This document shows, piece after piece, positions 2,332 to 35,757 of a DNA stretch of 64,000 nt. The notes under the pieces were generated by a model. The model did not search any database. It saw only the letters and a list, made by a program, of their open reading frames with translations, and was not told where the DNA came from. The DNA is from Ostreococcus lucimarinus. Taxonomy: Eukaryota. Made by a program: the position numbers and the translations under genes. The first letter of the stretch is position 1, and each line of letters begins with the position of its first letter. The DNA is taken from NCBI GenBank assembly GCA_000092065.1, contig CP000586.1. The stretch is one strand, 5' to 3'.

Positions 2332-4146
2332 CTACATGCCTCCCATCATTTGTTCTTCGTGCGCGCGAAGCAAGCGAACGACCTCCATCTCTTCGCTCGT
2401 TCTGAACATGTAATCAAGCTCTTCATCGTCGATAGCTTCAATCGCCAACGCATCCTCTCGTTCGATGCGTTCGGCGTCGGTTTCATTGAGAAGAGGATCA
2501 ATGCTCCGCTCAGCCATAGCCTTGGAGAAGATCTCACCCGCTTCGAAGACGCTCTCGCGAGTTTCTGGAGCCAGGGGTTTCATTTCAGTCGAGAGTAAGC
2601 GTTCCGGAACGCCCGCAAGCAGTAAGCCGTGCAGCATAACTTCCTGCCAGCCCAAGTCCTTGTCTTCCGGAAGACCGAAAGGTAAGTTCGGCTCTTCCGT
2701 AACCTTGGAGAACTTTATCACTGGCTTTTTGTCCTCAATCTTGTCGGGCACGTACTTCGGACGGCGAACGCCGCCGCGCGAGATCGTTCGCTTGCGCTTA
2801 GGCGCCACTTTCAACGGCTCAGCCAAAATGATCGGACCGGACATCGAAGAGGTGTTGCTTTCGAAAGGTGCGGACTCCGACTTGAGCTCTTCTTTCACTT
2901 CGTCGTCGTCGTCGTCCACAGATGCTTCGGGCGGAGGCATGATGCGGGCGGCGCCGAGATGCGTCGCTGCCGAGTGCTGACGCACTTTGGAAATGCTATC
3001 GAGCACTTTCGAACGCTCCTCGTACGCGGCTCGAAACGCAGGAGGGAGGCCGTCGACCACACTCGCCGGAGGCGCGATGTCCAACGTGGTCTTTTCCTTG
3101 CTGTTCTCTGCGGTGGCGATGAACCTAAAAGCGATGGGCAAGTAATCATCGAGTCGTTTCATGCACATGTCCTCCCCCCAAGGAAATTTTTGTGAAAATG
3201 TGATGATCTCCCCCAAAAGCTCCTTCAGACGCTTTCGCACTGACACACTTTGTACGCGCGAAGCCTGCGCTGCGCGCTCGACGGTTACCTTGACGCCGTG
3301 CAAGCGCGCGACGACGATGACGACGGCGGCGACGATGACGATTGGATCGCGGCCAATTAATAAACCACGAGAAAACGCAAACTTCAACAAAACCTTGGCG
3401 TCTCGCACCGTCGGAGCAATCATCACGCTCCGCGTCGTGCTCCCACGCTGCGGCTGCACGGTGGAGTTTTTGTTTGAAATCGCCGCGAGCTCTGGCAGCG
3501 CCGCCACCGCGCGCGCGACGTAATTCTCCGGATCTAACGGCGGCATCTTCAACCCGTGCAGCTCTTGCAGTTTATGAAACACCCGCCCAAGCGTGAACAC
3601 GTTCACCGAGCACGCCTCCGCCACCTCTCGCATGCTCACCGGCAAATTATTCTGTCTACACACCGAGTACACGCACGCTCCCGTCAACTGGCTCGTCCAC
3701 AACCCCTGTCCCCATTTCCCATCCGACGCTCGCGTCACCAGATCCTTCACCTCGGCGATGATATCCTTGTTCAACTTCAACAGCGCCCCCGTGTGTTCGA
3801 CCGATTTCGCGATGTGATACAAGTTCGTCGACTCGCGGTCTCGAAACATGTTTCTCGTCACGTGCGACGCCCCCGGCATGCTCACCATCTGCGCTCGCGC
3901 CGCCGCCAAGTGCGCGCCGACGTGCGCGCCATCCTGTAAGAACGTCCCATCCGCCGCGCCATCCTCCGTCCAATTCAGCGTCGTCTGCAGCACGCTCGCG
4001 TTATAGACGACGCCGCACGCTTGACAAATTTCGCTCCCGAGCGCGGGCTCGAGTTTGATTTCGTGTTTCCCGCAGTTCGGGCACGCGGGCACGCGCGCGG
4101 CGCCGGGATCATCCGCGGCGTACTCTCCGTGATGCGCCAGATCCAT
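2332..4146 (-). CDS. BRF1: TFIIIB subunit BRF1 (TFIIB-related factor): N-terminal zinc ribbon, two cyclin folds, acidic or Brf1-homology C-terminus
   Basis: CPNCGKHEIKLEPALGSEICQACGVV is a TFIIB-type Zn ribbon. It is followed by cyclin-like repeats (LTGACVYSVCRQNNLPVSMREVAEA...VTVERAAQASRVQSV) and a long acidic tail. The ORF-track start at 4203 is a TTG. The first ATG (MDLAHHGEY) is at 4146. Confidence 0.8.
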   Translation of the reverse strand: MDLAHHGEYAADDPGAARVPACPNCGKHEIKLEPALGSEICQACGVVYNASVLQTTLNWTEDGAADGTFLQDGAHVGAHLAAARAQMVSMPGASHVTRNMFRDRESTNLYHIAKSVEHTGALLKLNKDIIAEVKDLVTRASDGKWGQGLWTSQLTGACVYSVCRQNNLPVSMREVAEACSVNVFTLGRVFHKLQELHGLKMPPLDPENYVARAVAALPELAAISNKNSTVQPQRGSTTRSVMIAPTVRDAKVLLKFAFSRGLLIGRDPIVIVAAVVIVVARLHGVKVTVERAAQASRVQSVSVRKRLKELLGEIITFSQKFPWGEDMCMKRLDDYLPIAFRFIATAENSKEKTTLDIAPPASVVDGLPPAFRAAYEERSKVLDSISKVRQHSAATHLGAARIMPPPEASVDDDDDEVKEELKSESAPFESNTSSMSGPIILAEPLKVAPKRKRTISRGGVRRPKYVPDKIEDKKPVIKFSKVTEEPNLPFGLPEDKDLGWQEVMLHGLLLAGVPERLLSTEMKPLAPETRESVFEAGEIFSKAMAERSIDPLLNETDAERIEREDALAIEAIDDEELDYMFRTSEEMEVVRLLRAHEEQMMGGM

Positions 4147-4420
4147 CGTCGCGGTCGCCGGCGCGTCGTCGCTCGAGCGCGCGCGTGTGACGCGCAATCG
4201 CAATCATTTCGACGCGACAAACGGACAAACGGGCACGTATGCGCAAACAGTGTGACGCGACCGCACACGCGACCGCACGCGCGCGCGCGCGTCGAGCCGC
4301 CCGCGCGCGTCGCGCGCGCGCGTCGCGACGACGCGCGTCGCGCTCGACGCGCGCGCGGCGACGCGCGCGCCCTCGCGGCGTCGGTCGCGGCGTCGGGACG
4401 CGACGGTTGGAAAAAGACGC

Positions 4421-5659
4421 ATGGCGACGCGCGACGACGCGAGCGCGACGTCGGTGTGGGAGGAAATCACCGCCATGGCGAGCGAAGACGGCGTCGTGGA
4501 TCTCGGTCAGGGATGGCCGGATTTCGGCGCGTCGATCGCCGCGCGCGAGGGCGCGGCGAGGGCGATGCTGGGGGACGGCGTCAGGGCGAATCAGTACGCG
4601 CCGGTTCGCGGCGACGCGCGAATGGTCGCGGCGTTGATTCGGTATTACGCCGCGACGGGATTCGATGTTGGACGGTGTGAGCGCGGAACGGTGGCGCGCG
4701 AGGAGTGCGTGGTGGTGACGGCGAGCGCGACGGAGGCGATTTACGGCGCGTTCCAAGCGGCGACGCGCGGTGGCGGCGACGGGACGTCGAGACGGGAAAT
4801 CGTCTTCGTGGAGCCGTTCTTTCCGTGGTATAAGGCCATCGCGGACGATGTAGGGGCAGTTTCTGTGGTCGTTCGCGCGCGCGCGGAAGATGGGTTTCGC
4901 GTCGACGTCGACGCCGTGCGCGCGGCGTGTTCGCGCGATCGAACGGCGTTGCTCGTCATGTGCTCTCCGCACAATCCCACCGGACACGTGATGACGCAGG
5001 ACGAGCTTTTGGGCATAGCGGCGCTGGCCGAGGACTTAGATTTGACCGTATTGAGCGACGAAGTGTACGAGCGGTCGGTGTTCGGCGGTCGCGCGTTCAC
5101 GCGCCTCGCCACCGTGGGCGACATGAGCGCGCGCACCGTCACGATTGGTTCGGCGAGCAAGCTTTTAAACTTGACGGGCTGGCGCGTCGGCTGGGCCGTG
5201 GGGCCGAAACGTCTCGTCGACCCAATCAAATCGGCGCACAGTTTGATGTCATACACCGCGCCGAACCCTCTACAGATTGGCGTCGCCGAGGCGCTCGAGG
5301 AGATTTCGCGAAGCGCCGACGGCGCCGTCTCCAGCGACGAAAACGCCGCCGTCATGTTCGAAAACGCCAACGCGCTCGAGCGCGCCCTCTCCGACGTCGG
5401 CCTCAGCTGTTTCTCTCCTCCGGGCGGATACTTCTTGGTCTGCGACGTCGGAAAAACCGGTTTTTCCGACATGGAATTTTGTCGAGAGCTCGCCGCTCGC
5501 GCCAAGGTGTGCGCCGTCCCCATGTCCGTCTTCTTCCTCCCCTCCCCGACCGGCGACGTCCCGCGCCATCTCGTTCGTTTCGCCATCTGCAAAGTCCCAT
5601 CCACCGTCCTCGAGGCGTGCGCGCGCATTCGCGAGCACGCGCCGTACGTAGCGCCGTAG
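4421..5659 (+). CDS. PLP-dependent class I/II aminotransferase, kynurenine or glutamine transaminase K-like
   Basis: Motifs: GQGWPDFG; NQYAPVRG; SPHNPTGHV; the PLP-lysine motif SASKLLNLTGWRVGWAVGP; and the C-terminal ARFAICK. 412 aa from a true ATG. Confidence 0.85.
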   Translation: MATRDDASATSVWEEITAMASEDGVVDLGQGWPDFGASIAAREGAARAMLGDGVRANQYAPVRGDARMVAALIRYYAATGFDVGRCERGTVAREECVVVTASATEAIYGAFQAATRGGGDGTSRREIVFVEPFFPWYKAIADDVGAVSVVVRARAEDGFRVDVDAVRAACSRDRTALLVMCSPHNPTGHVMTQDELLGIAALAEDLDLTVLSDEVYERSVFGGRAFTRLATVGDMSARTVTIGSASKLLNLTGWRVGWAVGPKRLVDPIKSAHSLMSYTAPNPLQIGVAEALEEISRSADGAVSSDENAAVMFENANALERALSDVGLSCFSPPGGYFLVCDVGKTGFSDMEFCRELAARAKVCAVPMSVFFLPSPTGDVPRHLVRFAICKVPSTVLEACARIREHAPYVAP

Positions 5660-25680: not shown

Positions 25681-28600
25681 ATGCGCGATGCGCGACGCGA
25701 CGCGACGACGCGACGCGCGACGACGCGCGACGACGGCGACGCGCGCGACGGCGACGCGCGACGACGCGCGCGACGCGCGATGCGCGCGTCCGAACGCGTC
25801 GAACGGTCGGCGACGAGCGACACGACGACGACGGAGACGACGCGCGACGACGCGGATGCGAGCTCGCCGCGCGCGCGACGGAGCGAGTGGACGACGACGG
25901 CGACGACGGCGACGAGAGGACGAGGGTCGTCGTTCGTCGCGACCGCGCTCACGGGGCTGACGATCGAGGACGACGACGGACGACGAGGGATCGCGCGGGG
26001 ACGGCGCGCGCGAGGCGAGACGAGCGAAGAGACGCGAGGACGAGGAGACGCGAGGACGAGGACGTTTCGGACGTCGAACGAGGACGGAGACGAGGAGACG
26101 TTGGAGATTGAGAACGAGACGCTGACGCGACGCGCGGGGGGGGTGGTTCGCGGACGATGGTCGTGCGAAGAGAAGGCGACGGCGGCGACGCGGTGCGCGT
26201 TTAAAAGCGACGGCGAGCGGCGCGGGTGGTTTTGGTGCGCGTTGCATCGAGATTCGTTCAGCTTGTTCGGGGAAAACGGGGAGATGCGGAGAATGCCGAT
26301 CGGATTCGAGGCGTGCGCGCTCGCGGCGACGAGGGAGGGGGTGTTGTTCGTCGCGAGCGACGGCGGCGGCGTGGCGCTCGTCGCGCACGCGTTGGACGAA
26401 CCGACGCCCGTCGAGGGCTTGAGCGACGGCGTCTTCGTCGCTTGGAGCGATCCACAACGATCGGACGTGTTGTTTTACGCGCATTCGCGACGTGCGCTCG
26501 AGCTTTGGACGATCACGCTCGTGCCGGCGCGGAGCGAGACTGAATTCAGCGACGCCGTGCCAGAGTTTGTCAGTCGCGCGGATCTGCGTTGGAGCGAAGG
26601 CGTCGGAGATGATTTCGCCGCCGACGCGGCGACGTACAGTTTGGCGCACGACGAAAATGGGCGCGAAATTATTTTAGTGTCCGACAATGCGGCGCAACGC
26701 GTGTGCGGGCTGTACGTAGACGCGGATGCGCCGGGAGGACACAGAGCGAGCGGGGCGATTGAGGGGACGTCGGCGATGGGCGTTTCTGGCACGCGTAAGG
26801 GCGATGGAATGTTGGACACGCTCGTGGTGTGCGTCGACGGCACGCTCGCGCTTTGCATCGGCACGCACTTGTTGTGCAAACTCGACGCGACGACGCCAGA
26901 CGGCGAGTCGACAGCTGGCGACGTACAATTTCTATCCGACAGCGTCGGTTCCGGTGTGACCGTGCACACGAGTAGACGAGGCTCGATGCGTGTGCGCGTC
27001 CCAGGATCTCTCGCATCGCCGCACGCGCGCGCATTGTTCGCTGTTCTGCGCGAAGTGTGCTCGCAAGACGACTTTTTGGATATTTTGCGGCGCATGTACG
27101 CGAGCGAGTGCGTCGGCGCCGATGACGCCGAAGCCGAGTGGGCGTACTTCGTTCAAGTGCTGCAAGCGTGGTGCGAAGTCGCCGTCAAACCGAGAGCTGT
27201 ACACGAGCTCGACGATTGGGAGTTTTCGCAGCGGTTACTAAAAGTTGGTGTCGATTCCTTGAGTGCCCGAACATCGGACTCGAATGTGAACGCGACGCGG
27301 GCGAGCGTCGTTTTGGACGCCGTGCACACGATTTACGAAGCTTCGAAAGTGGATTTGCTGACACGCTGCATGTTAAAACCATTGCGAGAGTTTGCGATGT
27401 CGTTGGTCGACGCGATCGGAACGACTAGGGAAGCGTACGCAGATTATTACGCCCGAGATTCTGGCGCAAGTATCGCGCCTTTGAGCGTTGCGGCGGCACC
27501 ATTGCAGGTGCCAGATCTATTACGCGCCGTCGAAGGAATATTCACGGGGCAGTCAGATTTTCACACACTCGTACCGCCGCTCATACTCGCAGGACTCGAA
27601 GAAAACGCGCACGTCGATGCAAACACATTTGGTGGTGACGTCGTCGTGCGTGCTCGACGTGTTGTGAAATTGTGTCACGTGTCCACTCTTGGTGCGACGA
27701 ACTCTTCGACGTCTGGCGGAGCGCTTGCGTGCGCCATGGTGGACATGGGCTTCACGCTGGAGGATCTCGAGCGCCTACCGCCGGGCCTGTCGCTCCCATT
27801 CCACGGAATATTACGCCGTTGCCGCGACTCTCCCGCTAATGGATGGCCAGTTGAGGCGTACAAGCTCATCGGCCGCCAAGACTTGGCGCTGATGCATGGC
27901 GACGACGATTTCATTCGCGACGAAAGACAACGGCGGGTATCGCGCGCGCCGGCTGCGACGACGCGAATTCAACCCGATAGCGCATCTGTGTCTGATGGTC
28001 TAGAGCATCTTGAAGAATTCGTCGGTCCTCTTCGCTTTCCTAGGGATTATAGAATTCGCGAGCTTCGCTCCATTCTGAGCACCGCTACGCCGGTTCCTAT
28101 TCAGCTCGACGAAACCGAAGGTGCAGGCGGCGACGCCGAGCAAGGTTCACAACAGCAGTCAAAGTTGTGGTTGCTAGCGGCGAGAACTGCGGCCATGCCT
28201 GTCGGTCGAGGAGCGGCTTCTTTGGGCACAGTCATCGCGAAACCAACCGAGGCGCTCCTCGTCCCTACACTTTGCCTCGCCGGATGTTTGCCCACGCAGC
28301 AGTACGCTGTGGTCAATCTTGATCTCACCGCCGCAGACGCACCGAAAGATTTCGTGAATTGGCCAGAATTTCACAACGGCGCTGCGGCGGGCTTGGCGCT
28401 TCGATCGGACGACGACAGTGGAAAGCTCACTCGAGCGTGGATCGTGTTCAATCGACCCAAACTCCCGACGTTTTCGCACGCGGGTGTTTTAATGGCGTTC
28501 GGTTTGAATGGTCATTTATCGAGCTTGACAGCGACTGACTTGTACAGATATCTCGCGCAAGAACACGAAGCGACGACCGTTGGTACGCTACTAGGTGTTG

Positions 28601-31020
28601 CAGCGTCAAAACTCGGTACGGGTGATTCTGCGACGAGCAGAATGTGCTTTCTGCATCTGCCGACACGCCATCCAATGTCGTTTCCAGAAATCGAGCTCCC
28701 GTCGCTCGTGCAATCGTGCGCTCTCTTGTCTGTCGGTTTGCTTTATCAAGGCACAGCGCAGCGCTTGATCGTTGAAACACTACTCAGCGAGTTAGGAAAG
28801 TCGCCAGAAGGCGATGTCATCAACGGTCGAGAGTGCTACGCATTGTCTGCTGGCATTGCACTCGGCCTTGTCACGTTGGGACGAGGACACAGCGCGAGCG
28901 GGTTGTCAGATTTGCACATAGCCGAGAGATTGCGTCATTTCATCGTTGGTGGTGTCGCACGACATGTACCACCTCCCGGCGGTGTCCCATCTTCATCGGC
29001 AGCGCGCAAGTCTACGTCCGGCGCCGCTGGTTGGCAAGAGTCGTACCCTTCGGACGACGCTTGGACAAACTCTACTGGAGGCGTTGTAGAGGACCAGACG
29101 GCGTCCGTCGATGGTTATATTCTTGAAGGTTCGATGGTGAACGTCGATTTGTCGGCTCCCGGAGCTATCATGGCGCTCGGTTTGATGTATTTGAAGACGA
29201 ACGACGCCTCTGTATCGGCTCACCTTGAGATTCCATCGACGCACTACGGCCTTGACGACGCGCGGCCGGATTATGTCATGTTGCGAGTCGTTGCGAAGAG
29301 CTTGATCATGTGGGACACGGTAGAGCCAAGTGCAAGTTGGATCGAAGGGCTACTACCGCCGCTGTTGCGAGACGCGATGGATGTCAAATCTCCCGAGGAG
29401 CAGGAGGCGCAAAATGATTCCTCATGGCTCGGCGAAGCCGATCGCGAGGCGATCGCGCAGACGTATGTCAACGTTCTCGCGGGTGGTTGCATGTCGATCG
29501 GTTTGCGTTTTGCCGGTTCCAGTAATCCTGACGCATCTGCAACGCTTCGACATTATGCGTTCAAGTTTCTTGAGTGGAAAAAGAAAGTGGGCCAGGACGG
29601 TGGGGAACCTCTGGTGAACAAGTCGATGCTCGAAACGTGCATAGGCATCGTCGCAATGGCGTTATCGTGCGTGATGGCTGGAACCGGCGATTTACCCACG
29701 CTCAGACTTTTGCGGCATCTCCGCTCGCGAATGGAGACGAGCGCATCTGCGAACACTGGTTTGACGTATGGTGCGCACATGGCGATCGGTCTCGCGAATG
29801 GCTTCCTATTCCTCGGCGGCGGCGCGCAGACGTTTTCAACCGACGACGCGTCCATAGCTGCGTTGCTGATTTCGATGTTTCCACGGTTTCCATCCGACCC
29901 GAACGACAACAGATGGTACTGCCAGGCCTACCGCCACCTTTACGCTCTTGCTGCGAAAGATCGCTTGCTGCACACGATCGACGCTACGACGCTCCAACCG
30001 GTATCATCGCCGGTTGAAATTACGACGGTGATCTCGCAAGGGAAAGAGACAACTATGCAGCTTATCACACCGTGCCTGCTGCCCGATCCCGCAGCGCTCG
30101 CGAGTATCAAGATCATATCACCCAGGTACTGGTCCATACACCTTGATTTCGCACTCATGCACGCGGACACAAAGGACGCTTTGTACAAGCGCCGAAACAT
30201 TCCGATTCAAAGGCACACCGCGGCGCTTTCGTACGAAATCGATCGCACGGGAGCGAAGGCGCAACTCGCGACGGCACTACACGCAGCCGGCGCGCGAGCT
30301 GCCCTCAAGCCGCCGTCTGCGGAGGCGAGTATAGATCACAACACCGCACCCGTTGCGAATGCGACGGCGGCACGAGCAGGAAGAGATGCTGTGGACGTTT
30401 TCACCAGCGACGCGGTGCTGCTCGCGTTCGCGCGACACATGGGTGATGGTGCGAGCGATCGGGCTGGATTCACAGCCGCGGCGTTACGAGAGTGCATGCA
30501 TAGGGAAGTTCCCGACGCTCTACGAACATACGTCGATATGTACGCATCGTGTGAGGCGCTCATTCACTCCACGGAAAACAGTGAAGCACGAGCAAATGCG
30601 GCGGCGCTCGCGGTGAACGACTTGCGCCTGTTGAGTGCGTTCAGTGAATTATTGAAAAGATCCGGACTTGATGAGCACGACGTCGAAACCACGTTTCCCA
30701 TGCCGACATTACTAGTATCGTCCTTCAAACAGACGATTTCGCTTGTCCTTGATTCCAGATACGGCGACCAAACGGTTGGCTGCGCTCTCGCCAAGTACCT
30801 ACGCGGCGAAGGGTACGACGCGTCGATTGATACTTACGGTAGGTTTGGGTGTTATTTGCGTCTGTTAGACGTCCCCACACCTCGAGTTCTTCGTTCGGCG
30901 ATAGAGACGGGCATGAATCGACTGGGCGCGAGCGATTTGTCTGTCGCTTCGTTGAGAGCGTGTTTGCCGGATGCAGACCCGTCCACCGTTCTTCGAATCA
31001 TCGAAACGTGCCTCCCTTGA
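25681..31020 (+). CDS. APC1: anaphase-promoting complex subunit 1 (APC1); the 5' end is uncertain and the true start is probably several hundred bp downstream of 25681
   Basis: Rpn1/Rpn2-type PC repeats (LGLVTLGRGHSASGLSDLHIAERL; AIMALGLMYLKTNDASVSAHLE; GAHMAIGLANGFLFLGGG). A C-terminal block, LLISMFPRFPSDPNDNRWYCQAYRHLYALAA, matches the remembered APC1 C-terminal block (LYPHFP…DNRYHLQA.RHLYVLA). The first ~150 codons of the ORF are R/D/A-rich low complexity. Confidence 0.8.
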   Translation: MRDARRDATTRRATTRDDGDARDGDARRRARRAMRASERVERSATSDTTTTETTRDDADASSPRARRSEWTTTATTATRGRGSSFVATALTGLTIEDDDGRRGIARGRRARGETSEETRGRGDARTRTFRTSNEDGDEETLEIENETLTRRAGGVVRGRWSCEEKATAATRCAFKSDGERRGWFWCALHRDSFSLFGENGEMRRMPIGFEACALAATREGVLFVASDGGGVALVAHALDEPTPVEGLSDGVFVAWSDPQRSDVLFYAHSRRALELWTITLVPARSETEFSDAVPEFVSRADLRWSEGVGDDFAADAATYSLAHDENGREIILVSDNAAQRVCGLYVDADAPGGHRASGAIEGTSAMGVSGTRKGDGMLDTLVVCVDGTLALCIGTHLLCKLDATTPDGESTAGDVQFLSDSVGSGVTVHTSRRGSMRVRVPGSLASPHARALFAVLREVCSQDDFLDILRRMYASECVGADDAEAEWAYFVQVLQAWCEVAVKPRAVHELDDWEFSQRLLKVGVDSLSARTSDSNVNATRASVVLDAVHTIYEASKVDLLTRCMLKPLREFAMSLVDAIGTTREAYADYYARDSGASIAPLSVAAAPLQVPDLLRAVEGIFTGQSDFHTLVPPLILAGLEENAHVDANTFGGDVVVRARRVVKLCHVSTLGATNSSTSGGALACAMVDMGFTLEDLERLPPGLSLPFHGILRRCRDSPANGWPVEAYKLIGRQDLALMHGDDDFIRDERQRRVSRAPAATTRIQPDSASVSDGLEHLEEFVGPLRFPRDYRIRELRSILSTATPVPIQLDETEGAGGDAEQGSQQQSKLWLLAARTAAMPVGRGAASLGTVIAKPTEALLVPTLCLAGCLPTQQYAVVNLDLTAADAPKDFVNWPEFHNGAAAGLALRSDDDSGKLTRAWIVFNRPKLPTFSHAGVLMAFGLNGHLSSLTATDLYRYLAQEHEATTVGTLLGVAASKLGTGDSATSRMCFLHLPTRHPMSFPEIELPSLVQSCALLSVGLLYQGTAQRLIVETLLSELGKSPEGDVINGRECYALSAGIALGLVTLGRGHSASGLSDLHIAERLRHFIVGGVARHVPPPGGVPSSSAARKSTSGAAGWQESYPSDDAWTNSTGGVVEDQTASVDGYILEGSMVNVDLSAPGAIMALGLMYLKTNDASVSAHLEIPSTHYGLDDARPDYVMLRVVAKSLIMWDTVEPSASWIEGLLPPLLRDAMDVKSPEEQEAQNDSSWLGEADREAIAQTYVNVLAGGCMSIGLRFAGSSNPDASATLRHYAFKFLEWKKKVGQDGGEPLVNKSMLETCIGIVAMALSCVMAGTGDLPTLRLLRHLRSRMETSASANTGLTYGAHMAIGLANGFLFLGGGAQTFSTDDASIAALLISMFPRFPSDPNDNRWYCQAYRHLYALAAKDRLLHTIDATTLQPVSSPVEITTVISQGKETTMQLITPCLLPDPAALASIKIISPRYWSIHLDFALMHADTKDALYKRRNIPIQRHTAALSYEIDRTGAKAQLATALHAAGARAALKPPSAEASIDHNTAPVANATAARAGRDAVDVFTSDAVLLAFARHMGDGASDRAGFTAAALRECMHREVPDALRTYVDMYASCEALIHSTENSEARANAAALAVNDLRLLSAFSELLKRSGLDEHDVETTFPMPTLLVSSFKQTISLVLDSRYGDQTVGCALAKYLRGEGYDASIDTYGRFGCYLRLLDVPTPRVLRSAIETGMNRLGASDLSVASLRACLPDADPSTVLRIIETCLP

Positions 31021-31090: not shown

Positions 31091-32023
31091 TCACTGGGGA
31101 GCCTCGTCTTCGCTCGCGGGCGCGCTCTTCGCAACGACGCCGCACTTCATGAATTGGACTTTCCTGAAAGGCTTTCGGAACGCTTGTTCCGCGACGAGCG
31201 CTCGCTTATCCCCTATCGACTTCGCCACCGCAAAGAATGGCGAGCTCGTGTTATCTTTCACCGTCGGAAGCTGACTGATCTCCTCCAAAACCTCGTCTCC
31301 GCTCACGACTCGACCGACGACGACGTTCGTCGCGTCCAATTCCGGCGCCGCTCTCAACGTAATCGTAAACCCCGTCCCGTTCGGCGGCGGTGGCGGCGGA
31401 TCGTACACCGTCTCAAATTTCCCTCGCACACTCACCAACCGCGCCTTGGGTTCGGGCTCTGGCTCCGATGGATCTCTCCGCACGATCAAACTCACCAACC
31501 CGCGTTCGTCGTGCGATCTCTTGCCCAAATCCGGCAGCAGACGCTCCGCGGACGGCCCTCCCACGACGTCCACGCTCGCGTCCGAGCCCGGCGTCACGAA
31601 CTTTTCCACGCCATTATTCTTCAAATAAATCTCCACCGCATCGTCACCGTCGCCGGAGACTTCGATGTTATCGACCGTCGTTCGCCGATAAGACAAGCCG
31701 CCGACGCCTCGCGCGAGCTCGACGAATCGCCGACCGCTGAGCGTTCCCTCGTCCACCGCCACGACGATGCGTCCGAGCGGTTGGCCCTCGACCGCGATGT
31801 CGAAAAAGCACTCGGTGAAGTCCTCCGCGCGCGCGCGGCGCGGGGCGACGAGGAAGGGCGCGAGCGCGAGCGCGGTCGACACCGTTCGGCGGTGCACTCG
31901 CGCGGCGGCATCGGCGTCGTCGCGCGACGATGGAAGCCCGCGCGGCGCGGTGCGGCGGCGGTCGCTGGCGCGCGCGTGGACGCGCGCGCGATTCGGCGCG
32001 AGCCGCGCGAGCGCGGTGGACAT
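31091..32023 (-). CDS. thylakoid-lumen cyclophilin-type peptidyl-prolyl isomerase (divergent) with a twin-arginine signal
   Basis: Cyclophilin-like core: FFDIAVEGQPLGRIVVAV…GLVSLIV…FTITLRAAPELDATNVVVGRVVSGDEVLEEI. The N-terminus MSTALARLAPNRARVHARASDRRRTAPRG…HRRTVSTALALAPFLVAPRRARA-EDF reads as a transit peptide followed by an RR motif, a hydrophobic core and an AxA cleavage site. ATG start. Confidence 0.75.
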   Translation of the reverse strand: MSTALARLAPNRARVHARASDRRRTAPRGLPSSRDDADAAARVHRRTVSTALALAPFLVAPRRARAEDFTECFFDIAVEGQPLGRIVVAVDEGTLSGRRFVELARGVGGLSYRRTTVDNIEVSGDGDDAVEIYLKNNGVEKFVTPGSDASVDVVGGPSAERLLPDLGKRSHDERGLVSLIVRRDPSEPEPEPKARLVSVRGKFETVYDPPPPPPNGTGFTITLRAAPELDATNVVVGRVVSGDEVLEEISQLPTVKDNTSSPFFAVAKSIGDKRALVAEQAFRKPFRKVQFMKCGVVAKSAPASEDEAPQ

Positions 32024-32159: not shown

Positions 32160-33197
32160 CTACGTGAGCATTCTCGGTTCTTCGGGTTCTTCGACGACGG
32201 GCGCCGCCGGGGCCGCGACTCGGTCTTCGCCGTCGTCTTCGCCGTCGTCGCCTTCGTCGTCGCTGGCGGGGAGGAAAAACGCTTCAAAATTGATGGAGGA
32301 ATTCCCACCCGGTGCGCACGAAACCCCGCCGCGCGATCGTCGAGCTTGTGGCAGCGTGTCATCAAAGATGTTCCCACCCTGAAGCTGCGCCACGCCCGCT
32401 TGACGATGCGACGTGAGCGGGCGACGTTCGGGCAACGTTTGATCGAAGACGTTGTTTCCGCGCTGCTCGGCGAGTTTCGCCGCGCTGATCCGTTGCTTGG
32501 GTAACTCTGGACACGCGAATATATCACTTCCATTCATCGCCGCGACAGCCGCATCACGCGCCTGGCTGCCCGGCGATTGCCCGTTTCCCGAACGGCCGTC
32601 GCGCGCCTTCGGCGGCGACTCGCCGCCGAAAATAAACGAAGATCCCCCGCCCGGTTCACGAAGCACTCTCGAAGTCTTGCGACCCGTCAAAAAGTTGCCC
32701 ACATTCTGCCCTCCGGAGCGTCCGTAATTATTATCCATCGTCGACACCCCACCCGCCGCTTTCACCGTCGTCGTGGCTTCGCATTCGCCTCGATCGATCG
32801 CCTCGCACACCCGTTCAATCAACGTATCCCTCGACCCCGCCGGCGACAGTCCGTTCTGTCGGCACAGCGTTCTCAAATCCGCCAGCATCATCGCCTTCAC
32901 GTCGTCCTTCGTCGCCTTTTTCGTCGTTCGTTCGCTTCGCGTCGTCGTCTCTTCGTCTTCGTCTTCGCCGCCGAAGATCGTCTTCGCCGCGCCCTTGAAT
33001 TCGCGCATCTTCGCCGCGCTCGCCTGCCGCCACGTCGCCGGCCGTTCGTTCGCGCTGACCAATCCCTCACCGTCCGCGCCGAACGAGATGCTCGAGCGTC
33101 CTCCCGGCGGCGCGTGCGTGCGCGTCGTCGGTCGATCCGTGAGGACGTTGCCACTGTTTTGGTTCGCGCCGCTCGCGAACGCGTTCGAGGACGTCAT
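32160..33197 (-). CDS. SPIRAL1-like (SP1L) microtubule-associated protein with an internal SAP domain
   Basis: Two or three SPR1-type motifs are present. QNSGNVLTDRPTTRTHAPPGGRSSISFG and NNYGRSGGQNVGNFLTGRKTSRVLREPGGGSSFIFGG match SPIRAL1 N/C-terminal boxes ([31 protein letters not shown]). A further GGNSSINFE is present. SAP motif: MMLADLRTLCRQNGLSPAGSRDTLIERV. The start is taken at the ATG at 33197 (MTSSNAFAS), as in SPR1. The ORF-track start at 33368 is upstream of it. Confidence 0.65.
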   Translation of the reverse strand: MTSSNAFASGANQNSGNVLTDRPTTRTHAPPGGRSSISFGADGEGLVSANERPATWRQASAAKMREFKGAAKTIFGGEDEDEETTTRSERTTKKATKDDVKAMMLADLRTLCRQNGLSPAGSRDTLIERVCEAIDRGECEATTTVKAAGGVSTMDNNYGRSGGQNVGNFLTGRKTSRVLREPGGGSSFIFGGESPPKARDGRSGNGQSPGSQARDAAVAAMNGSDIFACPELPKQRISAAKLAEQRGNNVFDQTLPERRPLTSHRQAGVAQLQGGNIFDDTLPQARRSRGGVSCAPGGNSSINFEAFFLPASDDEGDDGEDDGEDRVAAPAAPVVEEPEEPRMLT

Positions 33198-33564
33198 CGC
33201 GCGCGCCGCGGCGCCGATCCGCGACGCGCGTCGGTCGCGTCGGTCGCGCGCGGGCGTCGGCGCCGCGCGCTCGGCGTCGCGGAGTGTCGCGCGCGCGCGA
33301 TCGCGCGCGATTGCCGACCAGACGGGTATATACACTAGGGTTTGGTACATAGCGGTACCAGACGACACAATACGGTAACGACTTCATTCCGCAACGCGCG
33401 CGCGCGTCGCGCGCGACGCGCGCGGTCGCCGCGCGCGCGGTCGCGCGACGCGGCGCGACGCGCGGTCGACCCTCGTCGACGCGCCTCGCGCTCGATCGCG
33501 CGCGAGCGTCGCGCGCGCGACGAGGAGGCGCGTTTTTCTCGCCGCCCGACGAGACCGCGCCGTC

Positions 33565-35757
33565 ATGACGAACGACGACGGCGACGGCGACGACGACGAC
33601 GACGCGCCCGAGGACGTCATCGAGGAGTACGACGGCGAGACGAACGACGCGGGACGCCCGCACGGGGAGGGATACGCGTGGTACGCCGACGGCACGGAAT
33701 ACGTGGGAGGATTCGTGGACGGCGCGCGGAGCGGCTACGGAAGGCTGTGGCTCGCGAGGGACGAAGACGAAGATTACGACGAAGACGACGATGTTCCGAA
33801 CGCGTTTTACCTCGGGGAATGGAAGGACGATCGACCGCACGGTAGGGGCATACAGGTGTCGCGCGACAAAACCTGGTTGCAGGGAAATTTTGAGAGCGGG
33901 GAGTTGCGAGGGGAGGCGTATTTGTCGACGCAGGTTTCCATTGGGGACCCTCGGTACATGGGCGAGTTCGGCGACGACGGCGCGTTCGGGGGCGTGGGGA
34001 CGATGTACAACCGGTGCGGCGGGCGACTGACGGCGAATTGGAAGGAAGGTGACATCGCCGCCGGGTTAGCGGTGTGGGAAGGTGACAGCGCGCGCAGGCG
34101 CGAGTCGACGGCGGTGGTGGCGTGGACGCGAGAGAGTTTCGGAGACGCCGAACGAACGGGAAAGTGGACAGATTTGGTCGCGCGAGGCGCGGTGGTGGTG
34201 CGTTTTGTAAATGTGGATACGTCTTATGAAGCGGGTTGCCGTCATAGACCCGAGGTGCGCGAATTTCTACGCGCTTTGAATGCCGTCGACGCTCGTCCTG
34301 GTTCGAGCGTACGAGCGGCCATCGAAGCCAGCGCGGTGGCGAGGAAGGCCGTCGAATTCGACTACGAAGCAGACGTTGCGACGACAGACTTATTGGCGAG
34401 CCTTACGTTGGCGCGCTATGTCGAGAGCTTGCGTGTGCGTGTGAGCCGAACGGCCCCGCTCGAAGTGCGTGCGACAGAAGACATGCATCGGCACGCCGTC
34501 GTCGCTTTTTATTCTGGCACCGTCGGTGAAGTCCGCGGCGTTTCTGCGAGCGACGCAGAGCGTCTCGCGAGCGATGCCATCATGCTTCGCGAGGAGGACG
34601 ATGAGGACACTCAAGAGATCGTGGCCGAGTACGATAAAGATCGGAGTAGTATCGCATACGCGCAGTCTCACGGCGTGCGCGTGATCCATCTCGACGTCGG
34701 CGCGGACGCGCTCTGCGCGAATTTTGTTCGCGTGGAGACGAAACACGAAACGAATTGCGAGCGCATGTTCTTCGAAAACCATCCCATCTTTGGCGATGCG
34801 GTGTTTCTTAGAACTAAAAGGTGTATAGCGAAGGACGAGGAGTTGACGGTCGCGCCAGACTACTTTTTCGGTTGGTGCTTAGACCCGTTGAGTGAGGCGG
34901 GCTATTACGAAAGCATGCGTTGTCATCCACCAGAGGTGATATTTGAGAGAGACAACGACGTCCTCGAACTCGGTCGCGTGACGGTGAAGCGACACGGCCG
35001 ATGGCGAGCGCTATACCTTGGGAATGTTGAGCAAGGATTGTCGTACGCGCCCACCGACGATGCGCCGCCGTCGCACGAAGTTCTCGGGTTTCAATACATC
35101 CGAGCGATGGCGATCGCCACCGTTGACCGCATCCGCGCCGAGAGACACGCCACGAAGTCGACGTCGATCGTCGCCGTCGGTCTCGGCACTGGTGCGCTAC
35201 CACTGTATCTGGCGAACGCACCCGACTTGAACGTCGACGTGGTCACCGTCGAATGCAGCCAAGCGGTCATCGACGCGTGCGCGGCTATCCACGTGCCTAT
35301 GCGCATAATCGATCGCGAAGGAAAATCCTCCGGAATCCCCGCCGCGAAGAAACGACGACGTTCGCGTTCGGAGCCGTCGCCGATTCGCGTCCACCGCGCA
35401 GACGCCTTGGACTATTTCCAGCGATGCATCGCAAAAAATATCACAGACAATCGTGTGGCGTCCGTGGACGTCGTCTTGTTGGACGCGTACGACGGCGACG
35501 GCAAAATCCCCGAGCGCGTTCGAGACGACTTCTTCATTCGATCCGTCGCGAGCTCGTTATCGCCCGTCGGCTTTTGCGTGTGCAACTGTTGGGACGGCCC
35601 CATAGGTTCGGAGGCCTACCACGAACTCCACATGTTCTCCAATCTTTTGGATCGTCACTTTTCGCTCATCGAGCGCGTGAGCGTGGTGGGTCAAGAGTAC
35701 AACGTCATTTTAATAGCGTCGCGCGCTCGGGCTCCCGGTGAGCGTTTGCGTTTGTGA
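33565..35757 (+). CDS. multidomain methyltransferase: MORN repeats plus SETD7-like SET domain plus C-terminal spermidine-synthase-like (class I SAM) domain
   Basis: MORN repeats: GEGYAWYADGTEYVGGFVDGARSGYGRL; YLGEWKDDRPHGRGIQ; WLQGNFESGELRGEAY. The SET C-terminus ENHPIFGDAVFLRTKRCIAKDEELTVAPDYFF matches the remembered SETD7 C-terminus (NHS…HPRFGPIKCIRTLRAVEADEELTVAYGYD). The C-terminal block is IVAVGLGTGALPLYLANAPDLNVDVVTVECSQAVIDAC…VDVVLLDAYDGDG…FIRSVASSL. ATG start. Confidence 0.75.
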   Translation: MTNDDGDGDDDDDAPEDVIEEYDGETNDAGRPHGEGYAWYADGTEYVGGFVDGARSGYGRLWLARDEDEDYDEDDDVPNAFYLGEWKDDRPHGRGIQVSRDKTWLQGNFESGELRGEAYLSTQVSIGDPRYMGEFGDDGAFGGVGTMYNRCGGRLTANWKEGDIAAGLAVWEGDSARRRESTAVVAWTRESFGDAERTGKWTDLVARGAVVVRFVNVDTSYEAGCRHRPEVREFLRALNAVDARPGSSVRAAIEASAVARKAVEFDYEADVATTDLLASLTLARYVESLRVRVSRTAPLEVRATEDMHRHAVVAFYSGTVGEVRGVSASDAERLASDAIMLREEDDEDTQEIVAEYDKDRSSIAYAQSHGVRVIHLDVGADALCANFVRVETKHETNCERMFFENHPIFGDAVFLRTKRCIAKDEELTVAPDYFFGWCLDPLSEAGYYESMRCHPPEVIFERDNDVLELGRVTVKRHGRWRALYLGNVEQGLSYAPTDDAPPSHEVLGFQYIRAMAIATVDRIRAERHATKSTSIVAVGLGTGALPLYLANAPDLNVDVVTVECSQAVIDACAAIHVPMRIIDREGKSSGIPAAKKRRRSRSEPSPIRVHRADALDYFQRCIAKNITDNRVASVDVVLLDAYDGDGKIPERVRDDFFIRSVASSLSPVGFCVCNCWDGPIGSEAYHELHMFSNLLDRHFSLIERVSVVGQEYNVILIASRARAPGERLRL

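Follow-up and report, generated by a model that had tools for sequence, protein, structure and literature searches.

A SAP domain combined with SPIRAL1-type boxes in a single-exon gene of Ostreococcus lucimarinus and in a green-algal protein family

The literature presents SPIRAL1 (SPR1) as a plant-specific protein that belongs to a unique set of land-plant plus-end proteins. Its N and C domains are jointly sufficient to track plus ends autonomously, with the C domain enhancing binding (bioRxiv 10.1101/521047). HN1 and HN1L decorate interphase and spindle microtubules (PMC11590752), and the PPGGK*S motif of JPT2 (HN1L) is required for its microtubule localisation, with direct binding reported in the lumen at the taxane site (PMC12773733). 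In animals, NuSAP connects mitotic chromosomes with microtubules and stabilises those around chromatin (PMC10650578). Finally, FAP414 of Chlamydomonas, a 17 kDa protein published as having "no conserved domain, no human homolog", is a central-apparatus candidate by comparative proteomics that has been assigned to the C1 microtubule; it is depleted from central-apparatus-less axonemes and reduced in fap47-1, fap76-1 and fap196-1 axonemes (PMC6548120). Here, we analyze a gene at positions 32160..33197 (-) of a 64,000-nucleotide stretch of Ostreococcus lucimarinus DNA (contig CP000586.1, assembly GCA_000092065.1; the whole stretch is referred to below as the window), which encodes a protein of 345 amino acids (aa) with a SAP domain between two full SPR1-type boxes, followed by a DUF4057-type tail.

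The gene is a complete single-exon coding sequence (CDS) of 345 codons plus stop, with its ATG at 33197 and its stop at 32160-32162 according to the open reading frame (ORF) list and translation, and the product is identical, residue for residue, to XP_001418486.1 / ABO96779.1 of O. lucimarinus CCE9901 (P0085). The names given to this protein are "predicted protein" at NCBI, "SAP domain-containing protein" in UniRef (A4RZ02) and, in JGI/KEGG style, "SPIRAL1-like protein"; both parts of the architecture are already visible in automatic annotation, which makes the locus a useful lead and not a novel type of system. Nine orthologs (42-90% identity) keep the order box 1, SAP, box 2, tail, DUF4057 scores of orthologs are 49-56 bits (Pfam), and the O. 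mediterraneus ortholog from the MMETSP transcriptome (P0139) retains both the SAP domain at 32.6 bits and DUF4057 at 49.2 bits. When the CDS was set against the DNA of an ortholog with 90% identity (L001), the ratio of nonsynonymous to synonymous substitution rates (dN/dS) was 0.17 for the whole CDS, 0.17 for the SAP domain, 0.08 for the boxes and 0.07 for the tail. The preliminary description of this locus had left room for an intron that would remove the SAP segment; as the transcript-derived ortholog keeps this segment, and its dN/dS is 0.17, we conclude that it is coding and not spliced out, and that the region is a genuine, expressed, single-exon gene of O. lucimarinus.

The start codon was also considered. 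An upstream GTG start, which would give 402 aa, was ruled out because orthologs start at a conserved MTSSNAF and the added stretch is non-conserved GC-rich sequence, and the extra N-terminus of a 396-aa metagenome gene-caller model (P0001) is spurious by the same conserved start. We note that prokaryote-style gene callers prolong this gene by 51-57 residues upstream (33198-33368; MYQTLIYIPVWSAIARDRARA...), and that the extended form represents the 90% cluster.

The SAP domain spans aa 99-134 by Pfam (32796..32903, -), within a folded unit of approximately aa 92-144 (32766-32924), and scores 32.1 bits against PF02037 (cut-off 23.9, E 8.6e-8). The string that had been singled out earlier as a textbook SAP motif, LADLRTLCRQNGLSPAGSRDTLIERV, corresponds to aa 105-130. 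Residues M103, M104, D107, L108, R109, C112, R113, G116, P119, A120, G121, L126, E128 and R129 form a core that is invariant in the 9 orthologs, and the canonical basic and hydrophobic pattern is retained in Ostreococcus. A profile of 29 family SAP segments matches the solved SAP domains of hnRNPUL1 (E 0.003), Ku70, Hcc-1, MKL1 and Tho1 (PDB entries 1zrj, 1jjr, 2do1, 2kvu and 1h1j). When AlphaFold2 was run with a 36-sequence alignment, confident folding was obtained only at aa ~92-144 (block pLDDT 76-94, with the remainder below ~60), with helices at 97-101, 105-114 and 123-136, the latter two at pLDDT 84-94. A Foldseek search of the PDB returned almost only SAP domains among its top matches, namely DEK (nucleosome-bound), Tho1, PIAS1, hnRNPUL1, Hcc-1, 3'hExo and FAN1, for instance DEK 8kd1_K at an rmsd of 1.0 over 37 columns; the E-values are not significant, because the SAP domain is tiny within a disordered query. 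The protein is thus predicted to be an intrinsically disordered chain with one folded SAP domain, and the Pfam score, the modeled two-helix fold and the structural matches agree that the SAP motif between the boxes is genuine.

Box 1 (aa 1-40, 33078..33197, -; MTSSNAFASGANQNSGNVLTDRPTTRTHAPPGGRSSISFG) is of the type SSNAFAxGxxQNxGNxLTDRxTTRxxAPPGGxSSIxFG, terminates in PPGGRSSISFG, and opens with the N-terminal MTSSNAF conserved in orthologs; its dN/dS is 0.08, and it scores 73.5 bits with our local box hidden Markov model (HMM), of whose training alignment (A2) it is itself a part. Box 2 (aa 152-191, 32625..32744, -; STMDNNYGRSGGQNVGNFLTGRKTSRVLREPGGGSSFIFG), of the type NNYxRxxGQNVGNFLTxRxTSRVLxxPGGGSSFxFG, is the closest of the boxes to the SPR1 C-terminal domain, and is nearly invariant over 36 homologs (dN/dS 0.08). 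Partial box 3 (aa 286-308, 32274..32342, -; RRSRGGVSCAPGGNSSINFEAFF, including ...APGGNSSINFEAFF) carries a terminal PPGG-type motif that is matched weakly by the local HMM and in which no ortholog departs from G297, G298 and S301; its counterparts are the terminal KPPGGGSSIVF of a Tara Oceans contig (L002) and RKPPGGGSSIMLG of the streptophyte Mesostigma, both of which are discussed below. The JUPITER family of Pfam (PF17054) matches aa 169-200 on profile positions 13-44 at 20.9 bits, below its cut-off of 27, a similarity at the motif level only.

The relationship of these boxes to SPR1 was assessed at two levels. In BLASTP against an SPR1-type protein of Ensete (P0193), box 2 matched at 4e-11 (48% identity), box 1 at 7e-9, and the partial box at 0.034. 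For profile comparison, 47 boxes were taken from algal homologs, of which 40 were aligned to give profile A2, and the alignment of A2 with land-plant SPR1 C-domains by hhalign had a probability of 99.4% and an E-value of 2.9e-21. The termini of Arabidopsis SPR1 (including NNYARAE...) were obtained by translating primer sequences in bioRxiv 10.1101/521047. When A2 was compared with 5.8 billion proteins, the land-plant SPR1-type matches included Ensete P0193 (5e-13), which has MGRGVSSGGGQSSLGYLFG as well as the SPR1 C-domain, Amborella P0196 (2.5e-12) and Citrullus P0190; this box-only search returned only proteins of 70 aa or fewer, such that the matches are SPR1-type fragments and not full-length architectures. 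The SPR1-box similarity proposed from the letters alone therefore survives profile comparison. The accompanying proposal of two or three boxes around a SAP linker holds in that there are two full 40-aa boxes and one partial box, but at the N-terminus stands a complete copy of the C-terminal-type box of SPR1, and not the short N-terminal box of SPR1. A six-frame scan of the 64-kb window with local HMMs gave no boxes or motifs outside this gene.

We note separately that the only matches of A2 in the PDB were the extreme C-terminal tails of CRMP/DPYSL1-5 (e.g., RASARILAPPGGRSS), which are weak (E 0.022-0.8) and were not used as evidence. CRMP/DPYSL is another tubulin-binding family. PPGG(R)S may be a short linear motif of wide occurrence with a connection to microtubules.

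The rest of the chain consists of shorter modules. A putative first "short helix + G-x-x-I/V-F" unit at aa 61-77 (32967..33017, -; AAKMREFKGAAKTIFGG) has an AlphaFold2 helix at 64-74 at low confidence and a K and a G conserved in orthologs, and is similar to the AK..E..G.D[IV]F units that recur in the tail. Directly after box 2 lies SPPK (S194-P-P-K, aa 194-197, 32607..32618, -), found by regular expression on the translation, which is the only full consensus for cyclin-dependent kinase (CDK) in the protein and recurs as SPP[KQR] in Ostreococcus-clade orthologs; this conservation marks it as a possible CDK site. The DUF4057-type tail (aa 235-302, 32292..32495, -; dN/dS 0.07) includes the units AKLAEQRGNNVFDQ and QLQGGNIFDD, and Pfam DUF4057 (PF13266) matches two stretches of the protein at 39.6 bits (cut-off 23); the better of them, aa 235-302, covers profile positions 231-298 of 299. 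The chain ends in an acidic tail that is predicted to be disordered (aa 309-345, 32163..32273, -; LPASDDEGDDGEDDGED...EEPEEPRMLT), and in which the motifs FLPASDDEG and PVVEEP are conserved in the Ostreococcus clade. From N to C, the layout is therefore a 40-aa box, linker, SAP domain, box 2, three to four "G-x-x-I/V-F" units, a terminal PPGG-type half box and the acidic tail, and we regard the identity and architecture of the protein as given here as highly probable.

An exhaustive HMMER search of 1.84 billion representatives with the ortholog profile returned 1342 proteins at E<=1e-3, and of the 150 best representatives (50% identity), 56 have, by local HMMs, a SAP domain immediately upstream of a box. 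Among the best 120 matches of a further profile search (A4), all those with a named source are green algae save one acoel record. Named members with SAP and box include Ostreococcus species, Bathycoccus prasinos, Mamiellaceae sp. RCC2288 and Nephroselmis, as well as Chlamydomonas, Volvox, Gonium, Dunaliella, Haematococcus, Raphidocelis, Scenedesmus, Tetradesmus, Chlorella, Coccomyxa, Micractinium, Ulva and Bryopsis, such that named Chlorophyta with this combination reach from Mamiellophyceae to Chlamydomonadales, Trebouxiophyceae and Ulvophyceae. With the exception of the acoel record, every SAP+box protein to which a source could be assigned is from a chlorophyte. The family core is a SAP domain followed within ~15-40 residues by a NNYxRxxGQNVGNFxTDRxSSRVLxPPGGxS box, and it is present in the Ostreococcus protein as the SAP domain at aa 99-134 and box 2 at aa 152-191. 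In core chlorophytes the form is a compact SAP-box-linker-box, whose last residues are exactly ...PPGGxSQIxFG, and the SAP domains there score near or below the Pfam cut-off. Judged by this shared core, the 345-aa protein is the mamiellophyte form of a Chlorophyta-wide family with a SAP-then-box core, of which FAP414 is also a member. The preliminary description had asked whether other Mamiellophyceae retain the SAP insert, which the orthologs at 42-90% identity do; its alternative of an unusual linker insertion gives way to the recurrence of a SAP domain directly upstream of a box throughout Chlorophyta.

The box itself extends further than the SAP-box combination. Box-only tandem proteins without SAP occur beyond the green lineage in the dinoflagellate Abedinium folium (P0212, 750 aa, 12 matched stretches) and the brown alga Ectocarpus (P0172), and the metagenomic proteins P0044, P0052 and P0059 likewise carry tandem boxes without SAP, with up to ~12 copies in such tandem proteins; the 40-aa box is thus not confined to the plant lineage, as had been supposed. 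In the basal streptophyte Mesostigma (P0327), two boxes are followed by a DUF4057 tail (52.8 bits), again without SAP.

Two records in this set deserve comment. The acoel record (P0390) is a SAP-box-box protein annotated in the genome of the flatworm Convolutriloba macropyga, presumably a host of green algae, and most likely derives from a green-algal symbiont or from contaminating algal DNA. On the Tara Oceans contig that carries P0042 (L002:3001-4516), a 222-aa box-SAP-box ORF ends in ...NVVGFMR* by reading into GTAGGT; a 421-nt GT...AG interval (3652-4072) follows, and then an in-frame exon (4073-4513) with a DUF4057 tail at 72.6 bits that is collinear with the O. lucimarinus tail. As this exon lies in frame past the GT-AG interval, the tail-less mamiellophyte forms of the P0042 type are probably gene-calling artefacts and not a separate architecture; an intron that was retained or went unrecognised is the probable source of such models, and perhaps also of the similar C-terminus in the RCC2288 transcript P0036.

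One of two C. reinhardtii members of the family is FAP414 (CHLRE_09g394065 / Cre09.g394065, P0432, 164 aa), which contains a SAP domain and two SPR1-type boxes; a second C. reinhardtii paralog, Cre11.g467576, has 310 aa with a SAP domain and three boxes. Residues 100-191 of the O. lucimarinus protein (SAP and box 2) are collinear with aa 11-117 of FAP414 at 41% identity (3e-19). Because FAP414 is depleted from axonemes that lack the central apparatus, it associates with a microtubule structure. Neither FAP414 nor the 345-aa protein has a sequence match in the PDB, and by sequence the family occurs in no solved structure there, including the deposited central-apparatus models.

From the gene structure, domain identities, homologies, conservation and distribution established above, we infer microtubule binding, DNA binding and a site of action for this protein. 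The repeated PPGGxSSxxF boxes would bind microtubules multivalently, because the PPGG-type motif has been linked experimentally to microtubules in SPR1 (plus-end tracking) and in JPT1/JPT2/Jupiter (lattice or lumen), while the basic SAP helix-loop-helix would attach the microtubule-bound protein to a second, polyanionic ligand. Since Ostreococcus lacks cilia and has an intranuclear spindle, DNA or chromatin would be the most plausible such ligand in this organism. In O. tauri, this spindle has ~10 microtubules, significantly below the minimum of 40 from textbook models (PMC3777167). The 345-aa protein could then serve, in the manner of NuSAP, as a tether or stabiliser that joins spindle microtubules to chromatin, and SPPK may be where it is regulated. 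To the reading as a whole, namely a multivalent microtubule-associated protein with a SAP domain as tether to a second polyanionic ligand (probably the chromatin of the intranuclear spindle), we assign a probability of roughly 0.5. Among its components, we consider microtubule association to be reasonably likely, and tethering of DNA through the SAP domain to be less likely than not.

Several observations weigh against this reading. FAP414 has the same SAP-box core, yet it occurs in cilia, which contain no DNA, so the ligand of the SAP domain in the chlorophyte SAP-box family may be something else; this homolog argues against taking it for granted that the SAP domain here binds DNA. SAP domains also bind RNA or proteins, examples among our Foldseek matches being 3'hExo and PIAS1. 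The match to JUPITER is below the Pfam cut-off (20.9 vs 27 bits). As for the boxes, the N-terminal GGG motif of SPR1 is essential for plus-end tracking and the C-type PGGG is dispensable (bioRxiv 10.1101/521047), and box 1 here has PPGGR, not GGG. Finally, for FAP414 the authors allowed for multiple locations or non-specific association (PMC6548120).

The main competing explanation is that the protein is purely cytoskeletal, being a microtubule-associated or microtubule-inner protein in which the SAP domain contacts tubulin (for instance its acidic C-terminal tails), another cytoskeletal protein or RNA, and not DNA. This would fit the position of FAP414, with the same SAP-box core, as an axonemal central-apparatus candidate on singlet microtubules, the reported presence of JPT2, another protein with the PPGG motif, within the lumen of singlet microtubules, and the binding of RNA and proteins by SAP folds in 3'hExo and PIAS1. 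It would also fit the core chlorophyte SAP domains, which score near or below the Pfam cut-off and have therefore diverged from canonical DNA-binding SAPs. However, Ostreococcus, without cilia, still keeps a SAP domain that exceeds the Pfam cut-off by a wide margin and has the basic and hydrophobic pattern of canonical SAPs, the localisation of FAP414 is proteomic only and possibly non-specific, and we know of no SAP domain that binds tubulin. Taking both sides into account, we consider a purely cytoskeletal role to be possible, but rather unlikely.

It is also conceivable that the protein acts in the nucleus without any microtubule role, as a nucleic-acid-binding protein of the SARNP/Tho1 or scaffold-attachment type, with PPGG boxes that are low-complexity or condensate-forming. 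The SAP domain is after all the only folded domain, Drosophila Jupiter gives a strong nuclear signal in HeLa cells, and JPT2 is reported to have non-microtubule roles, namely NAADP binding and phase separation. What makes this explanation improbable is that no other element of the family is as conserved as the box (36 homologs with hardly any change in box 2, dN/dS of the boxes 0.08), that it is specifically homologous to the C-domain of SPR1, when SPR1 and JPT proteins bind microtubules directly, and that FAP414 is found in axonemes. By far the least probable explanation is an artefact, in which the SAP segment would be an intron, or two genes would be read through as one ORF, or the motifs would be chance matches in GC-rich low-complexity sequence: the genome is indeed GC-rich (61%) with long spurious ORFs common, and prokaryotic gene callers did produce the false N-terminally extended model of 396 aa, but an intron or fusion is ruled out by the continuous ORF, by orthologs at 42-90% identity that keep SAP and boxes in the same order, by the presence of all modules in the transcriptome-derived ortholog and by a dN/dS well below 1 in every module, and chance is countered by Pfam scores that exceed their cut-offs and by the absence of the motifs elsewhere in the six frames of the window.

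The genes around the SAP-box gene are unrelated to its product. On the 5' side, a presumed promoter or intergenic region (33198..33564, no strand assigned) with a GC content of 70-75% lies between divergent genes, and is largely CGCG-rich and of low complexity by composition profile and sequence; a short AT-richer island at ~33320-33390 within it may hold core promoters, and inspection of this promoter region by eye for cell-cycle elements yielded nothing convincing. Beyond it, and divergently transcribed from the SAP-box gene, is a gene for a 730-aa protein with MORN repeats (33565-35757, +), the rest of which is mostly without domain assignment. On the 3' side lies a cyclophilin-like gene (31091-32023, -; 310 aa, with a partial match to cyclophilin-type PPIase), followed by APC1, encoding subunit 1 of the anaphase-promoting complex (25681-31020, +), a 1779-aa ORF with APC1_C, Apc1_MidN and APC1 beta-sandwich domains. 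The 3' end of the SAP-box gene and APC1, which encodes a mitotic regulator, are ~1.1 kb apart, a proximity that is probably coincidental in a eukaryote.

The wider significance of the locus lies in the connections it makes. Jupiter/HN1 is treated as an animal family and DUF4057 is without assigned function, and one 40-aa repeat in the SAP-box gene ties both to SPIRAL1; green algae habitually fuse this repeat to a SAP domain. This provides an evolutionary frame for the origin of SPR1 and assigns domains to Chlamydomonas FAP414, in which no conserved domain had been reported. It also offers a concrete candidate for a protein that may link microtubules and chromatin in what is the smallest eukaryotic spindle known. 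Taken to its furthest extent, and here we are speculating on what is a doubtful proposition, an ancient SAP-plus-PPGG-box protein would be a direct, non-kinetochore tether between microtubules and chromatin in green algae, with SPIRAL1 and Jupiter/HN1 as SAP-less relatives within a pan-eukaryotic microtubule-binding repeat; alternatively, the SAP domain of this family would not serve for DNA but for binding tubulin or the lumen of microtubules. A tether would help the ~10 spindle microtubules of Ostreococcus to segregate 20 uncondensed chromosomes, and a tubulin- or lumen-binding module would explain FAP414 on the singlet microtubules of the central pair.

Among the described systems, animal NuSAP already pairs a SAP domain with a microtubule-binding domain (PMC10650578), and the link between microtubule and DNA attachment was therefore not as unexplored as the preliminary description had suggested. 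The resemblance goes no further than architecture and function: in NuSAP1, an N-terminal SAP domain is joined by a separate microtubule-binding region of a different type from the PPGG boxes, and the NuSAP family is not among the Pfam matches at E<=1, with no homology to NuSAP beyond SAP. FAP414 shares the SAP-then-box core. Its C-terminal box, which stands at a different position in the chain, is also matched by box 1 of the 345-aa protein, and UniProt labels both as "SAP domain-containing protein". FAP414 differs in its N-terminal SAP domain, its missing DUF4057 tail and its length of 164 aa, and it came from ciliary central-apparatus preparations, whereas Ostreococcus has no cilia.

With Jupiter, JPT1 (HN1) and JPT2 (HN1L), the Ostreococcus protein shares the motif xSRVLxPPGGGSxFxxG and a terminal PPGG(K)SSIxF, such that box 1 ends in HAPPGGRSSISFG and the C-terminus of JPT2 is LNPPGGKSSISFY. 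Both the JPT proteins, which are found on interphase and spindle microtubules, and the 345-aa protein are disordered chains with several PPGG repeats; the animal proteins are without the N-terminal half of the box (NNY..GQN.GNF.TDR) and without SAP. Our literature search returned no paper linking SPIRAL1 and Jupiter, the sole co-mention being unrelated judging from its title and the start of its abstract, and no paper joining SPIRAL1 with "SAP domain". DUF4057, which we take to comprise the plant "HN1-like" proteins, has in common with the 345-aa protein the repeated AK..E..G..[IV]F units and a terminal PPGGxSSI motif, although the best stretch covers only the last ~70 of the 299 profile positions and the sole streptophyte member examined, that of Mesostigma, is without SAP. 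In the composition of its sequence, box-box-tail, this Mesostigma protein (P0327) bridges the box and DUF4057 forms. The papers returned for DUF4057 are, judging from their titles, surveys of omics data or of gene families.

SPIRAL1 and its SP1L relatives, lastly, share their C-terminal domain with box 2, and less closely with box 1, and this domain is internal in the 345-aa protein and C-terminal in SPR1. Both have repeated GGxSSxxxFG ends with poorly conserved, disordered linkers between them. However, SPR1 has 119 aa (~12 kDa) compared to 345 aa here; its short N-terminal GGG box is absent, the N-terminus here being a full 40-aa C-type box with PPGGR and no GGG; and its linker is domain-free, whereas a folded SAP domain lies between the boxes of the Ostreococcus protein, with the DUF4057 tail and the acidic tail in addition. 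The initial view of a tiny SPR1-type protein thus had to be abandoned, the best curated family being DUF4057, with JUPITER sub-threshold. As three defining features of SPR1 fail, namely small size, a short N-terminal GGG box and a domain-free linker, the protein is filed not as an SPR1 orthologue, but as a DUF4057/SPR1-box protein of the chlorophyte SAP-box family.

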